Virus record (IMG/VR): IMGVR_UViG_3300045988_035499
Direction: 5' to 3' (one strand)
Origin: a virus
Length of the DNA: 64,000 nt
Position 1 is the stretch's first letter. Every line of letters begins with the position of its first letter. The notes under the pieces are model-generated. The model saw nothing but the letters and a program-made list of their open reading frames with translations, did not search any database and was not told where the DNA came from. The position numbers and the translations under genes are program-made. Shown piece after piece: positions 4,161-64,000 of the stretch.

Positions 4161-4197
4161 AAGGCAGGCTTTGTGAAAAGCTTGCCTTTAATTTTTT
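4161..4197. terminator. bidirectional rho-independent terminator between the convergent modules
   Basis: Hairpin AAGGCAGGC-(10 nt)-GCTTGCCTT is flanked by an A-run (4157-4162) and a T-run (4192-4197). It sits between the TAA of the plus gene (4140-4142) and the TAA of the minus gene (4196-4198). Confidence 0.7.
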
Positions 4198-7100
4198 AAT
4201 CACCCGTAATCTAAGTATCATAATATCTACGTTTACTTGGAATATCATTTAATTCAATTAGATTTTTGAATGGAGTTATTTTCCATACATTTCTTTCTAA
4301 TTGAGTTTTTCCTCTATAAGCACCTCTAGTTATTGTTTTACCCTATTTACTTTTTTCTCCTCTTATATTTGATAATATCAAATCGTAAGGATAGGAAATT
4401 ACAGACCCAACGTTATCTAATAATGAGTATAGCGGGGTAGGTGTTTTAATAGTGCTATATATATCTACTAGGTTATATGGAGCAGTAGTTTCAAAAGCAG
4501 TCCTAGCCATTACATAAGCAAATAGATTAAGAAGTATATTTCTCTTATCTTTATCTGCTTCCTCTTTCAGAACATTCCTTATTAAAGGATATAAACACAT
4601 ACACAATGCTGCTTCTATCTTCAACTTCTTAATATTAGTTCTATCTAACTCGCTTGAAAAACCTCTATTAAGAAAAGTCTATTTTAAAACAGTAGTAAGA
4701 AGGTCTGCTCCTGATTTGTCTTTCCAAGTTTGAGCAAATACTCTAAACGGAGTTTTAAGTATGGCTTCTACTTCTCTTTGAGTTTGATAATCCCATTGCC
4801 TATCCATAGTAAAACTCTATTGAAGAATGATAGGGATATATTGTCTATGCATCATACACATTGCACCAAATACATTAGCGCTCATCTAGGCTTTCTGTAA
4901 AGGACTTAATTGACCATCTGCAGAACCAGCTAACTATCTAGCAGCATTACCGATAGTAAACTTAGCTTTATCTACAGCTTGTTGATACTCTGGGGAAATA
5001 GCAACTATTTTGCCAGCACTAAACTTAGTTAAAGCTTTAAATGATTTAGCTTTCTTCCATCTCTACTAGGTTTCATCTGTTCTACCATATTTATTATAAA
5101 ACATTTCGTGATGCATGAATTGTCCATCAATGTATTTATAATCGTACATTACACTATTTAGTATTTGACCTTTTATAAAATAATCAGATACTGAGTATAA
5201 TCCAAAAGCCCACTACTTCTAAATGACATTTATAAATTTAGGTCTATTAGTATTAGTAAACAAACTATCCATAGTAGAACCAACTTCAAAGTAATCCATA
5301 TAAGCCATCTATTCGCTCTTATATGTTCTACTACCAACACTTAAACCGTGTTTAAATAAATCGAATACTATATCTTTAAATGCGCTTACTGCATTACTAA
5401 AAGTATAATATCTACCAGTTAAAGAATTAACAAGATGAGCGTGAGCAGCAGTAAAGAAACCAGTAAATGCACAAGCGAAGTTTAAACCAAGATTTCGTAA
5501 TGTACCATAACCAGTAATAGTCTTTAATAGCTTGGTTATACTTATCTCTCTGTCTTTAATAGATATAGATAAAGCATTAGTCTTAACATCGTATAGATTC
5601 ATATTAATAAACTTTTCTGCAAACTTATATATATTAGTATCAGTTCCAAGTTTAGGTTCTTGTTTACCGGTAAATACTCTCTTAATTGAACCTATAGTAC
5701 TAGTACCAGTATACTTTCTCTATGATAAAAATGACTTTATATTTTCTACTTTACCTTTCACTTCATTCTTCTGTTTGAAGTTTTCTGCCATTTTAAAATA
5801 CTGAATAACAGAACCTACCATATCTGCTGATATAGTAGCTGGATCGTCTAGCTGTTTAGTAAAGTATTGAGGAATAAGAGCTAAAGAAGTACCATCTGGA
5901 GACGTTAAAACCTTTTTATTTATACCAACATCATCATTCTTTACAGTAGCAGCATCTAACAAATAGTTACCTATAGCAGCAAATGGATTAAATCCTGATG
6001 CTTTAAGATGTTTATACAAACTACCTGATATTTGAGGTAATCTATATTTGTTTAAATACTCTAGATTATTTAATTTGCTATTAGATTCCTCCATTGTGTC
6101 TATTAAAGCTTTTCTAAGCTCAGATAATGCTTTATTAGACATTACTTCATTATATGCTTTACTATTATCATATATTGACCTCTTAGGCTGATAATACTCA
6201 TCATTATCCTATTTGTAGTTCTTATTAACAAATGGAGACTCTGAAGATAATTCAGACAAATTAGAAGAAGGAATAACCTGTATATACTTACTGTCTTTAG
6301 GAGCAATCTTTGTATACCATGATTTAGGAGCAGTTCCAGTAGATGTATTATAAGTATTAGTTAAATAGAATACCTCTGAACTACCAGGAACTTCTTGGTC
6401 TTTTGCCAGCGCAGCTGCTTCATCTCTCTTATAAGCTTCAGTAGCTACTACTCTAGCTATCTTACTAAATTCAGTCTTTGATCTCTTTTTTTTAGATGAC
6501 TTTCTTATATTATTCATCTTAATCTCTAACTAATCTAGTAATCTCTTAGTAGAATTAGGCATTAATTTAGGATTCACTTCACCAGTACGGTTATCTCTGA
6601 ACATATTTAAGATAGCTCTCTTCTACTTATTATATTCAGCATATACTTCTCCGTAGTCAGCTCTATCTAAATTAGCTAATTGTTCGTAAAACTCCTCAGT
6701 ATATACAACTCTAGTGTTACGATCCATCCACTTTTTAAATTCATGCTTACTTAGACTATTTCTTTTTTCTTCAATCAAATCTTGGAATTTCTATTGATTA
6801 TAGTTCTTATTAAGATTCTTTGATAATTTATTATTTAGTTCAGTAAGTTCATCAGCTATTCTTCTTTCTACAGAACCTTCTGGCTTTTCATTACCGTATA
6901 TATCGTAAATACTAGCTAATTCCTTTTTTTCTAATTCATACTGTTGTAGAGTATTCCATTCCTCATCTGTCATTGATTCATAATGAATTACTCCATTATT
7001 ATCTCTATACTTATTAGATAAAGTTCTTATCTTAGACATTATTATTTCTCTTGCTGAAGCTGCTTCAGGGCTAAGAGAATTCATTAAATCATAGAATTCA

Positions 7101-9109
7101 TTAGTATATTTACGTTCACAGTGCTCTGATAACCATTTATTAAGTCTTTTGTTGTATTCTGTTCTAGTAGCTATATTCTCAGGTAATTGAAGAGTTTGAT
7201 GGTCTACACCGAATTCTTTCTATAACTATTCTTTAAACTATTTTAAGTCTTTGTAGAATCTACCATAGTTCAAATCCCTAATTATATAACCTGTAGTATT
7301 ACCATTCTCATCTACTTCAAACAATAGCTTTTGATTTCTATTTCCTGCTACTTTTAATAGTTTGTTTAGTTCATTAGCTTTTTGAAATACTACTTCATTT
7401 ATACTATTTTCAGTATTCTGTAGTATATTAAATAAACTCTTAATAGCTTCATCATTGATTCTATCTCCAGAACCTAATACTCTAGTAATGTAGCTAATAT
7501 CAAAGTCTGTTTTTCTAGTATTTTCAGATATATAGTTATATATAGTAGGGCTATTTACTTTCATGCCTTCCTTTAACATAATTCTCTAGGCATTAACTAC
7601 TTGCATACGCTTAACTGCATCATAGCTCTAATCTAAAATACTCTTACATAATTGTAGTTCTGTCATTAATTTATTATAGTTTGATTCTCCTACAATTTGT
7701 TTATAAGTATTCATGTTTACTAAAGAATTATATATATCTTTAGCCTACTCACAGTAAAAAGCAAAATAGTTCTTATTCAAAGCTACAAGTTCCTCATCTG
7801 TTAAAGCATCAGCCTAACCTTTATAAGCTTCTACTACTCTATTACCTACATCTCTAACATCTAGTTTTAAGTCTGTAATAAAAGAAGCAATAACATCAAA
7901 ATCATTTATAGCATTATTCTATAAATTAGCTATCTGATATTTTATGTTCTCTATTACTTCTGTTCTTTTAGATATATCAGTAATATCTATACTACGTAAT
8001 CTAGACTGTAAACCAGATAGTAAGTTCTATCTTATATCAGATAATCTCTTGTCTAACTCTTCTTTAGTATCAAAGTTATACTTCTCTGCTTCATGTATGT
8101 TTGTTTCAAGCTGTTTAACTTTATTGTTTAATGACTTTTCAAATCTAACGTTAGCAGATTCATTATTATCTTCTAAATTGAAAGATAATAATTTCATTAA
8201 TATATCTCTAGTACTTTCTGTATTTTTTACATGCTATTTTCCGGTAAGTAAATCAATGATTGCAGACCATACTTCCCTTATCTTACTTATCACTTCTTCA
8301 AATAATCCTTTCTATCTAGCATCATCTATTATATTATTTACAAATTCTTCATTAGTAAGAAATTCAGCTATAAATTCATATTCATCTTTTAACCCATATA
8401 ATGCACCAGTCCACTTACCTTTTTCATCATATATCTCCTAATATAGTTTTCTATTGAATTTTAATAAGTCTTTTACCTTATTATATATCTTTATTTCCAG
8501 GTCAGTACCTACACCATTTTTAACATTTTCAAAAGATCTTGAAGTAAATGCATGAACCATTTCATGTACAATACTTTTTGCATTGTACTCCATATCTGTT
8601 TCTTCAAATATCTCTTTATTAATCCATATAGTGTGAGTATTATCACTATACCACATGTAATCCCCATTAGCTAATTGATCTTTTTCTTCTGTTATACCAA
8701 TATATACATCAGTATCAGAGAATAAATCAACTATCTAGTATGCTATAGAATCTTTTGATATATACTATTTTAATTTCTCAACCACTTGCCCTGATGTGGT
8801 ACTCATGTGAGGAGAACCATCTGACCAAGTACCAGTAATATCACCTATATTTGAAAAGAAGTCAGAAGGTTGTTCCTAAGCCGGTATAAACGTTTTAGCT
8901 ATCTATCTAATAGCTTGATGACGATTTCCGTCAAAACGTCTTAAGAGGTCTGAAAATAGCTCAGACTAAGACCCGTCAGGGCCCTAGTCTATAGCATAAC
9001 CATTATTTTCAGATATGATATAATAAGCAGCGTCTTCACTGCCTAACACTCTAGCAACTTCATCAACAGCTGCTTTTACTTCTTTGTTATTTAAATTTAA
9101 ACACTGCAT
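4196..9109 (-). CDS. giant virion/cargo-type protein (1637 aa) with a zincin HEMVH motif; TAG read as sense
   Basis: Track fragments 4343-4624 through 8438-8656 all share one frame. Hand scanning found no in-frame TAA/TGA between ATG 9109 and TAA 4196, and about 35 in-frame TAG. HEMVH lies at 8552-8566. Confidence 0.75.
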
Positions 9110-9111
9110 AA

Positions 9112-63254: not shown

Positions 63255-63266
63255 AATTATTTCTCC

Positions 63267-63731
63267 TTATAATGTTTTAATATATTCTAAAAAACCTTTC
63301 TTACCATACTTTTTGTATGTTTTCTTTCTATTTTTGATTTTATATTTGTTAAGATTTTCAGGCTTACGAGTTTTTAGATAGTCTAAATTCTCAGCATTAG
63401 CATAAGCCTCCATTTCATAACAAATAGTATAATAAGCTCCTGAAGCTGGATGTATTATTGGATTTCCTTTTAACCATTGTATTAAGTAAGACCAATAGTA
63501 CTTCAACCAAGAACCTTTATCTTTAGCCTAGTATAAGTGAATAGTCTCATGATTCCAAGTAGTAGGAGTTATAAGACTTTCATCTTTTCTAGATAATAGA
63601 TACCCACACCAACTCATTGCAGAATACCCACTAGCTGGGTAATGTTCCATATGTTTATACTAAACTTTATCTGCCTTTACTTTAGTGAATAACTATTTAA
63701 TAATCCACCATGTTTCTTTAAACCAATTCAT
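63267..63731 (-). CDS. small HExxH-motif protein (154 aa)
   Basis: ATG 63731 to TAA 63267 with 3 TAG. The motif reads NHETIHLY(TAG), i.e. HExxHxxQ if TAG is Gln (63528-63551). Confidence 0.55.
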
Positions 63732-63732
63732 A

Positions 63733-64000
63733 TTACTTCTCTCCTACCGTTTTATTCTTCAGTGCCGTGCGTGCTTTCAACCTTTCACGTTCCAAAGCTG
63801 CGTTATCTTTTTGTTTTTGTAGCTACTTCTAAGCTTCTAACTTTTGCTTTTCTAATTCAATTTTCTTATCTTCGATCTCTTTCTTCATCTTTTGTTCACG
63901 AATTTTAGTATTGAATTCAAACTGTTTAGAGGCTTCATCAGATGCTTGTTTTCTTTCAGCTAAGGCTTGATTTGCTATCTCTATAGGATCGGGTATTCCA
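63733..64000 (-). CDS. 3' end of a Lys/Glu-rich coiled-coil protein (partial, continues beyond the window)
   Basis: The frame is open from the window edge to TAA 63733 and contains two in-frame TAG (…KLEA(TAG)K(TAG)LQKQKD…). Confidence 0.5.

Follow-up and report, generated by a model that had tools for sequence, protein, structure and literature searches.

TAG-to-glutamine recoding in the late genes of a crAss-like phage and a predicted intron-split amber suppressor tRNA upstream of its terminase gene

The IMG/VR virus record IMGVR_UViG_3300045988_035499 provides a 64-kb stretch of phage DNA (here called the window), which holds the end of a replication module on the plus strand and, on the minus strand from 4196 to 64000, most of a late module of virion, tail and lysis genes. 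This phage reads TAG as a sense codon and keeps only TAA and TGA as stops. The best explanation is genetic code 15, in which UAG encodes glutamine and UAA and UGA terminate; to this explanation as a whole, including a suppressor tRNA, we assign a probability of about 0.92.

TAG as a sense codon in the late module

With TAA and TGA as the sole stops, the minus strand from 4196 to 64000 becomes a gap-free tiling of 37 genes and 19,704 codons, in which an ATG stands within a few codons of each frame start and neighboring genes abut or overlap by a few bases. These genes contain 266 in-frame TAG codons and no internal TAA or TGA, in agreement with an initial annotation that had read TAG as sense across the whole interval from the DNA letters alone. 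The two long series of co-framed fragments which it described correspond to the open frames 9112-22920 (4602 codons, 74 TAG) and 4196-9115 (1639 codons, 34 TAG); together with the frame 61931-63193 (9 TAG), they bear out its hand counts of about 74, about 35 and 9. In the strand's two non-coding frames, 8.5% of positions are TAA or TGA; at that rate, stop-free frames would arise with a probability of about 1e-177 in the case of the 4599-codon gene and of about 1e-757 for the whole set. The minus-strand genes end in TGA at 47169, 61931 and 42664, as the initial annotation had listed, and in TAA in every other case, and TAG terminates no gene on either strand, the 37 minus-strand genes and 18 genes of the replication module included.

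Homologs provide a second view of these frames. Megablast and tblastn searches place the window among human fecal Suoliviridae that the ICTV has classified, which supply both its best DNA and its best protein matches. Pfam families derived from the crAss001 virion mark the capsid, tail ring 1, tail ring 2 and muzzle proteins (Crass_capsid; CrAss_Ring_1, E 5e-115; CrAss_Ring_2; crAss_MUZ), and the crAss genome layout is also present. By sequence comparison, the phage is placed in the family Suoliviridae of the Crassvirales, near the Birpovirus/Uncouvirinae group. The window is about 64% of a circular genome of about 99.7 kb: ENA contig ERZ27311610 k119_161094 (99,865 bp; the source contig) is 100% identical to window positions 50530-64000, and the coordinates of two of its loci give a terminal overlap of 119 bp, from which circularity and genome size follow. 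The 384-amino-acid gene at 60530-61684 served as the anchor for fetching the source contig and relatives; loci of either are cited by L-numbers, L165 and L168 being stretches of the source contig outside the window.

The nearest RefSeq genome, cr115_1 (NC_055898.1, Birpovirus hiberniae, Suoliviridae, Uncouvirinae), is collinear with the window in gene order; its capsid region matches at about 79% of nucleotides and its major capsid protein at 90.6% of amino acids. It is likewise TAG-recoded, and its RefSeq annotation has full-length genes. The two differ in their giant proteins, which are only about 35% identical, and in two additional GIY-YIG genes and several tail genes of the window that have no counterpart in cr115_1. 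Two further Suoliviridae, cr1_1 and cr50_1 (Boorivirinae), use the standard code and share about 47 to 50% protein identity with the window. The IMG/VR relatives fetched with the anchor (about 75) are all TAG-recoded.

Under translation table 11, the late module shatters, as the initial annotation had anticipated, and more than 250 fragments result. That no ORF (open reading frame) then exceeds 654 amino acids is the point in favor of TAG being a true stop, with the region consisting of pseudogene fragments, an assembly artifact or genes expressed by occasional programmed readthrough. However, the fragments share a frame with no TAA or TGA between them (the P of about 1e-757 given above), and only TAG reassignment opens the frames: reassigning TGA or TAA does not restore the long ORFs. 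The orthologs of the largest gene in cr1_1 (4559 codons) and cr50_1 (4775 codons) are uninterrupted under the standard code, and the alignments to them run across the TAG positions rather than being limited to single fragments. Moreover, independent assemblies from ENA, Logan and JGI samples gave identical sequence, samples with this phage including ENA ERZ27311610, ERZ1745309 and SRR6474230, and the TAG pattern is common to all relatives examined (about 75). The codons also lack a particular nucleotide context: the base that follows TAG is A in 44%, G in 28%, T in 21% and C in 7% of cases, with no bias at this +4 position relative to CAG or to codons overall, which favors general reassignment over context-dependent readthrough. 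The frame, homology, assembly and context data together refute the genuine-stop interpretation.

Amino acid encoded by TAG

The identity of the encoded residue as glutamine is supported by three independent lines, namely, comparison with standard-code relatives, exchange between TAG and Gln codons among recoded relatives, and the body of the suppressor tRNA. For the first two, the 37 genes were translated with X at TAG and aligned with relatives by tblastn, and the facing codon was read from the best-scoring alignment for each site and relative. Because cr1_1 and cr50_1 use the standard code, no circularity arises through their annotation. Against a Gln background frequency of 3.1%, glutamine stands opposite TAG at 28 of 113 alignable sites in cr1_1 (8-fold enrichment, binomial p 1.3e-17) and at 26 of 171 in cr50_1 (5-fold, binomial p 2.3e-11), and no other residue is enriched more than 2-fold in either genome. 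It is the most frequent residue in the tabulation that the initial annotation had suggested as a check, and it leads the likelihood ranking by 51 nats (cr1_1) and 42 nats (cr50_1).

Among the 75 recoded relatives, the codon opposite TAG is TAG itself in 412 cases, CAG in 199 and CAA in 146; codons for Glu, Lys and Asp come next. In the reverse direction, Gln codons of the window face TAG in relatives at a mean of 8.1% per site, compared with at most 1.6% for every other residue. A likelihood test on these relatives, with substitution profiles learned from the same alignments and each site weighted once, yields −566 for Gln and −709 for the next-best residue, Glu, a separation of 143 nats. Glutamine, which the initial annotation had proposed, thus ranks first by likelihood in each of the three data sets.

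The two single sites on which that proposal had drawn fared differently. The TAG at 32797-32799, in the HHSIYL-TAG-RAYNKYG segment of GIY-YIG endonuclease 2, indeed faces Q in the paralog at 30575-31390, and it also faces Q in the solved catalytic domain of I-TevI (PDB 1MK0/1LN0; HSSIKLQRSFNKHG). When the two paralogs are compared throughout, Q lies opposite only one of six alignable TAG positions, and we discarded this comparison as anecdotal if taken as evidence for Gln on its own. The TAG at 63528-63530 follows HETIH-LY in the small putative protease and had been read as completing an HExxHxxQ pattern; among 30 relatives this position is GAA in 23, CAA or CAG in 5, TAG in 1 and TTG in 1, and the family motif is HExxHxxE/Q. 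As the site varies between Q and E, it lends no support to glutamine.

Sites of this kind, at which relatives have mostly Glu, are among the observations that would suit a sense codon for some other residue (e.g., Glu, Lys, Tyr, Leu, Ser, Trp or pyrrolysine), as are the rank of E, K and N as the next commonest residues opposite TAG and the label "Pyl" that ARAGORN attaches to every CUA tRNA. However, E, K and N are also the usual substitutes of true CAA and CAG codons in the same alignments, whereas Gln alone is enriched more than 2-fold opposite TAG in the standard-code relatives and leads any alternative by at least 42 nats, and the suppressor tRNA body described below matches Bacteroidales tRNA-Gln. 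In addition, mass spectrometry has verified code 15 by detecting Gln in TAG-spanning peptides of two crAss-like phages (Peters et al. 2022, PMC9523058), one of which a review assigns to Suoliviridae (PMC10136315). We therefore consider a residue other than glutamine very improbable.

A candidate suppressor tRNA and its putative intron

Searches of the whole 64 kb with tRNA finders and Rfam detected no tRNA gene in the window. On the source contig, a predicted suppressor tRNA gene (L165 1669-2741) lies directly upstream of the terminase and portal genes, on the same strand as the late genes. Its putative first exon is TGCCCTATGGTGTAATGGTTAGCACAGGAGGCTCT (L165 1669-1703), and its second is AACCCTCTTAGTCTGCGTTCGAGTCGTAGTGGGGCTA followed by CCA (2702-2738). 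The 998-nt insert between them carries a 301-codon HNH endonuclease ORF without TAG (L165 1743-2648), which leaves 39 and 53 nt of insert outside the called ORF. According to blastn-short, an uninterrupted tRNA(CUA) in L007 and about 20 other relatives matches the two exons, half by half, at 100% identity; this intact form scores 51.6 bits against the Rfam tRNA model, and its loop, CUCUAAC, gives the anticodon CUA. The boundaries in L165 (marked by slashes) read ...GGAGGCTCT/TAGAAG...AAATG/AACCCTCT... where L007 has the contiguous sequence GGAGGCTCTAACCCTCT, and in the predicted spliced tRNA(CUA) of 72 nt the exons would join as ...GGAGGCUCU/AACCCUCU... The intact allele sets the insertion between anticodon bases U35 and A36, with U as the last exon base and G as the last intron base.

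Because the intron of about 1 kb splits the anticodon, tRNA finders overlook the gene. With its intron option, ARAGORN detects it on the source contig, misplaces the boundary and calls it "Lys(ctt)"; its call for the corresponding position of L017, cr115_1, L048 and L050 is "Ser(cga)". A one-base boundary shift gives a CUA anticodon in all five. L017 has an HNH-insert arrangement like that of L165, whereas cr115_1, L048 and L050 combine another tRNA backbone (type B in cr115_1) with a 228-nt intron that has no ORF and lies at the same position. The nearest RefSeq genome thus resembles the window phage in having an intron-split tRNA(CUA) upstream of its terminase gene and differs from it in the type of backbone and intron.

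By eye, the last 140 nt or so of the 1-kb insert reads CUUCUC...GACUAAACGAGAAG...AAUAGUC, in which GACUAAA...AAUAGUC looks like the P3/P7/P8 elements of group I introns, and these core motifs suggest that the insert may be group-I-like. Group I introns occur in the anticodon loops of bacterial tRNAs, for example, in cyanobacterial tRNA-Leu(UAA). The L165 gene resembles these in having its intervening sequence within the anticodon loop, a U before the 5' splice site and a G at the end of the intron, intron-less alleles in sister genomes, and an internal homing endonuclease ORF. It differs in that the interrupted gene would be a phage amber suppressor rather than a cellular sense tRNA, in the insertion position 35/36, and in the lack of an Rfam group I match for the 1-kb version.

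The relatives indicate how regularly such a gene occurs. ARAGORN reports no CUA tRNA in cr115_1 or in MT835588 (a 92% identical contig), and at default settings no other CUA tRNA was found in a 94 to 98% identical relative that covers about 18 kb of the source genome. In 38 of 74 capsid-region loci, however, a tRNA(CUA) lies on the late-gene strand, a few kilobases upstream of the anchor gene and right ahead of the terminase gene, and the only other tRNA types at that site are five tRNA-Met calls. A search by structure only (5-bp stem, YU-CUA-RN loop and 7-bp acceptor stem) recovered 14 more CUA tRNAs unseen by ARAGORN and no match on the opposite strand. These atypical genes (in L013, L014, L015, L018, L019, L021, L034, L046, L051, L066, L067, L070, L071 and L077) sit upstream of the terminase gene, about 0.1 to 2.9 kb from the start of each locus. 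Their acceptor and anticodon arms are regular and their ACCA end is encoded, but they combine these with enlarged D loops that lack GG and T loops that lack T-Psi-C (e.g., GGCCGAU and AGCAGAA). Altogether, 56 of the 75 related loci have a CUA tRNA at the fixed site, none of them on the opposite strand, and the remaining loci mostly have truncated flanks. Standard tools miss it in 18 of the 56, of which 4 are split (including the source genome) and 14 are noncanonical; that of cr115_1 in RefSeq is split as well. Ten distinct versions share a common cloverleaf with compensatory changes at 14 of 17 pairs, and all have an invariant CUA, an invariant U1, and a 1:72 pair that is weak or mismatched.

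The origin of the suppressor can be approached through its body. A search for the source-type D arm, GGTGTAATGGTTAGCAC, followed at the proper distance by a Gln anticodon matched 92 genomic stretches, the majority of which belong to Prevotella, Alloprevotella, Prevotellamassilia, Bacteroidaceae and other Bacteroidales; the search pattern itself demanded the Gln anticodon, and this match set is therefore silent on the isotype specificity of the D arm. The suppressor also aligns without gaps and over its full length with Bacteroidales tRNA-Gln(UUG), including the parts outside the search pattern, and keeps U35. The two share an identical D arm and, by eye, about 24 of the 30 bases of the unconstrained 3' part. 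The tRNA body and the codon analysis thus support a suppressor derived from tRNA-Gln, in the manner of supE, and a Bacteroidales host would fit such an origin.

We hypothesize that UAG is decoded by this phage-encoded amber suppressor, with anticodon CUA and an origin in a Bacteroidales-type tRNA-Gln. The host glutaminyl-tRNA synthetase would presumably charge it, as amber suppressors are known to be glutaminylated (bioRxiv 10.1101/2021.08.26.457843). The suppressor would need intron splicing before it could work, it would have to outcompete host RF1, and the recoding would delay translation of the late genes until the suppressor had been made.

Several points weigh against code 15 decoded by such a suppressor. 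The gene lies outside the window, about 5 kb past its right end; it is interrupted, and its splicing is predicted from the exon sequences; the 1-kb insert matches no Rfam group I or group II intron model up to E 10; and the 228-nt intron of cr115_1 scores only 21.3 bits against the Rfam group I model RF00028, for which the threshold is 50. No release factor gene was seen, though no systematic search for one was made. On the side of the amino acid, some single TAG sites face Glu in relatives, and Q identity in cr1_1 is 25% at TAG sites versus 34% at CAA and CAG sites. As true Gln codons are kept as Gln at 34% (cr1_1) and 24% (cr50_1) in the same alignments, TAG sites act like slightly less constrained Gln sites.

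The same insert could also mean that the HNH gene inactivated the suppressor, with UAG being read instead by a near-cognate host tRNA-Gln(CUG) while RF1 is inhibited, by a suppressor of the host or of a coinfecting phage, or by an odd tRNA-like gene of the replication module. The missing match to any Rfam intron model, the mere 39 and 53 nt of insert beyond the ORF and the presence of two unusual tRNA-like genes near the DNA polymerase gene would agree with this, as would surveys that detected suppressors in only about 40% of TAG-recoded phages and left other mechanisms open (PMC7886860; bioRxiv 10.1101/2021.08.26.457843; PMC10136315). However, both exons are 100% identical to the intact alleles of sister phages, the insert falls exactly between two anticodon bases, its 3' 140 nt or so holds the GACUAAA...AAUAGUC motif resembling a group I P7/P3/P8 core, and the intron without an ORF that occupies this site in cr115_1, L048 and L050 has its weak group I match. 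A 4599-codon gene with 74 TAG codons would demand near-quantitative decoding at each site, which near-cognate readthrough is unlikely to provide; the same type of contig was found in several samples, which argues that the phage is viable; and the odd tRNA-like genes have no CUA anticodon. An inactivated suppressor thus appears unlikely, and we prefer decoding by the spliced phage tRNA.

Both unusual tRNA-like genes were considered as hidden suppressors and rejected. The tRNA-Arg(UCU) beside the DNA polymerase gene has the loop CUUCUAA, in which CUA is displaced from the anticodon register by one base; folded with the canonical 5-bp stem and 7-nt loop, it reads UCU, whereas reading CTA would need a 4-bp stem. 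A T33C change in this tRNA makes ARAGORN report "CTA" in L138 (1234-1308) and L146 (2161-2235), which is probably an artifact, and three other relatives have UUU (Lys) at the same gene, so that the apparent anticodon is easily altered. The second, a 72-nt tRNA-like element directly upstream of the DNA polymerase gene (L168 4070-4141 on the source contig, L083 4069-4140 and 30 related loci; Rfam tRNA 45 bits in L164), has a truncated anticodon arm without CUA. This arm is a short hairpin, CUA-GUAA-UAG in the source genome and CUAC-UAU-GUAG in relatives, that shows covariation and offers no usable anticodon, and ARAGORN calls the element "???(aa)" or "His(atg)". Lowering the ARAGORN thresholds produced hundreds of false positives, which were discarded.

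Other RNA elements were noted near the suppressor and in the early regions of relatives. A 104-nt tRNA-like element (L165 1557-1660; Rfam tRNA 34 bits), conserved in about 25 related loci, ends 8 nt upstream of the suppressor, with which it is probably cotranscribed; it has good acceptor and T arms and about 32 extra bases at the anticodon arm, and ARAGORN calls it "Val(gac)" with a 16-nt intron. Between the suppressor and the terminase region, about 430 nt (L165 2742-3176; homolog at L006 2617-3150) are ORF-free, apparently relatively G+C rich and without an Rfam match. At their end stands a conserved hairpin, GGGGGTTCGTTGTGAAACGCGCCCC, with TTTT after it, that is shared with cr115_1. This segment could be a structured RNA or a leader or terminator region. 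The early regions of relatives contain Hatchet ribozymes, a RAGATH-9 RNA and a permuted gene resembling transfer-messenger RNA (tmRNA) (L164 840-1009 and 2432-2870; L002 2624-2747, 4800-4938 and 6360-6887; L003 481-629 and 1601-1780). The tmRNA-like gene has the tag peptides GNTSYVTDYTRLVA and GNTSYIMNYSRIAA and an Rfam score just under threshold; as the standard-code phage cr50_1 also has an annotated tmRNA, tmRNA is not tied to recoding.

Distribution of TAG and relation to known recoded phages

TAG accounts for 266 of the 846 Gln-type codons of the late module (31%), compared with 3.8% in the replication module, where 18 genes on the source contig contain 5 TAG in 3,952 codons. The genome thus consists of a low-amber replication domain and a high-amber late domain. 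The polymerase, helicase and primase genes of the source contig have no TAG, and four replication-module genes carry one or two each (window 1608-1991, plus strand; L168 2067-2702, 2834-3343 and 13620-14015). The initial annotation had placed the recoding in the minus-strand module; this holds for the late genes but not as a limit, since the plus-strand gene at 1608-1991 has two TAG codons. Its public gene call carries PF06356, its homology extends before the first TAG and beyond the second, and the second faces Q in cr115_1 and L003, which shows that TAG is also sense outside the minus-strand block. If the code switch is temporal, such TAG-bearing replication genes would be made late, or early only in truncated form.

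Within the late module, the genes differ greatly in TAG use, as listed here with product lengths in amino acids (aa); the plus-strand gene is given first.

1608-1991, plus strand: replication-module gene, DUF1064, Holliday-junction-resolvase-like, 127 aa, 2 TAG, TGA stop
4196-9109, minus strand: giant virion-associated protein, 1637 aa, 34 TAG, TAA stop; ortholog of cr115_1 gp53
9112-22911, minus strand: giant protein, 4599 aa, 74 TAG, TAA stop; orthologs in cr1_1 (4559 aa) and cr50_1 (4775 aa)
22916-24511, minus strand: 531-aa protein, 14 TAG
24501-26450, minus strand: 649-aa protein, 7 TAG
26452-30585, minus strand: tail muzzle protein (Pfam crAss_MUZ), 1377 aa, 21 TAG; full-length alignment with cr1_1
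30575-31390, minus strand: free-standing GIY-YIG homing endonuclease 1, 271 aa, 2 TAG
31293-32225, minus strand: tail ring protein 1 (Pfam CrAss_Ring_1, E 5e-115 with TAG as Q), 310 aa, 8 TAG
32215-32973, minus strand: GIY-YIG homing endonuclease 2, 252 aa, 6 TAG
32954-33415, minus strand: 153-aa protein, 5 TAG, which are all of its Gln-type codons
33415-34059, minus strand: tail ring protein 2 (Pfam CrAss_Ring_2), 214 aa, 3 TAG
34203-34766, minus strand: 187-aa protein, 6 TAG
34813-35247, minus strand: 144-aa protein, 2 TAG
35267-36181, minus strand: 304-aa protein, 1 TAG
36211-36843, minus strand: 210-aa protein (Pfam DUF7841), 0 TAG
36876-37514, minus strand: lysis-cassette membrane protein, spanin-like (DUF6549), 212 aa, 6 TAG
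37486-37995, minus strand: holin (Pfam Phage_holin_4_1), 169 aa, 0 TAG
38166-40256, minus strand: tail-fiber-like protein, 696 aa, 6 TAG
40268-42667, minus strand: 799-aa protein, 4 TAG
42664-43035, minus strand: 123-aa protein, 4 TAG, which are all of its Gln-type codons; TGA stop
43038-44003, minus strand: 321-aa protein, 4 TAG
44060-44503, minus strand: endolysin (weak Peptidase_M15 match), 147 aa, 0 TAG
44481-44693, minus strand: 70-aa protein, 1 TAG
44693-47167, minus strand: 824-aa protein, 11 TAG
47169-51428, minus strand: tail fiber protein (Peptidase_S74 chaperone domain), 1419 aa, 17 TAG, TGA stop
51265-51699, minus strand: 144-aa protein, 4 TAG
51683-54907, minus strand: 1074-aa protein, 3 TAG
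54920-55594, minus strand: 224-aa protein, 2 TAG
55699-56673, minus strand: 324-aa protein, 0 TAG
56775-57443, minus strand: 222-aa protein, 4 TAG
57446-58159, minus strand: 237-aa protein, 1 TAG
58159-58911, minus strand: 250-aa protein ("RecA protein" in the cr115_1 annotation; weak RecA_C match), 1 TAG
59024-60493, minus strand: major capsid protein (Pfam Crass_capsid), 489 aa, 1 TAG
60530-61684, minus strand: 384-aa protein, 0 TAG
61702-61938, minus strand: 78-aa protein, 0 TAG
61931-63187, minus strand: 418-aa protein, 9 TAG, TGA stop
63267-63731, minus strand: HExxH protein ("protease" in cr115_1), 154 aa, 3 TAG including 63528-63530
63733-64000, minus strand: 3' end of the portal gene (88 codons with 2 TAG), which continues past the window

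On the source contig, the whole portal gene encodes 821 aa and has 18 TAG. The capsid gene has a single TAG, and the holin and endolysin genes and those at 36211-36843, 55699-56673 and 60530-61684 are among the TAG-free late genes. TAG supplies 57% of the Gln-type codons of the ring protein 1 gene, 55% of those of the spanin-like gene (6 TAG in 212 codons), and at least half in several small late genes. The lysis cassette consists of the holin, the endolysin and the spanin-like protein; with the first two free of TAG and six TAG in the adjacent spanin-like gene, its recoding is very uneven. The tail ring protein 1 gene lies between the two GIY-YIG genes, which share 31% identity; neither is at these positions in cr115_1, and they are thus recent mobile insertions. 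Public gene calls on the source contig include proteins of 4599, 1637, 1074 and 489 aa, and the call at 4196-9109 has coordinates identical to ours, so an alternative code had already been applied there.

TAG-to-Gln recoding, mainly of late genes, has been reported in the delta group, now Suoliviridae (PMC7886860), and Borges et al. (bioRxiv 10.1101/2021.08.26.457843) interpret it as a means of timing the late and lysis genes. The published code-15 crAss-like phages agree with the window phage in family, codon and amino acid, in the retention of TAA and TGA as stops, in the division into low-amber replication and high-amber structural and lysis modules, and in having standard-code sisters close by (here cr1_1 and cr50_1 in the Boorivirinae). 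The spanin and tail-tube gene families that Borges et al. found strongly recoded have parallels in the TAG fractions of the spanin-like and tail ring genes given above. We see no essential difference between this phage and the published ones, of which it is one further member. TAG-to-Gln recoding here, in a crAss-like gut phage with code 15 as the initial annotation had it, is therefore correct but already known, because it has been published for the family, validated by proteomics and used in public gene calls. Likewise, although table 11 would lose the giant virion proteins of 4599 and 1637 aa, annotation pipelines and the literature already handle this family.

The literature that we searched contains no description of an intron-split suppressor gene or of atypical variants at a fixed locus, and reviews and preprints up to 2026 (PMC10136315 among them) still list undetected suppressors as an open problem. 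Intron-split and atypical suppressors escape ARAGORN, and tRNAscan-SE-based surveys likewise report many recoded genomes without a suppressor. We lean, with some reserve, toward the view that the suppressor tRNA listed as "missing" from many TAG-recoded crAss-like phages does exist and, in this clade, is derived from tRNA-Gln, sits at a fixed site upstream of the terminase gene, and is in part intron-split or noncanonical; splicing, if required, would then add a step to the switch from the standard code to code 15. The derivation from Bacteroidales tRNA-Gln would point to a host of the Prevotellaceae/Bacteroidales type, and split and atypical suppressors may offer a checkable explanation for part of how recoded phages that seem to have no suppressor decode TAG.

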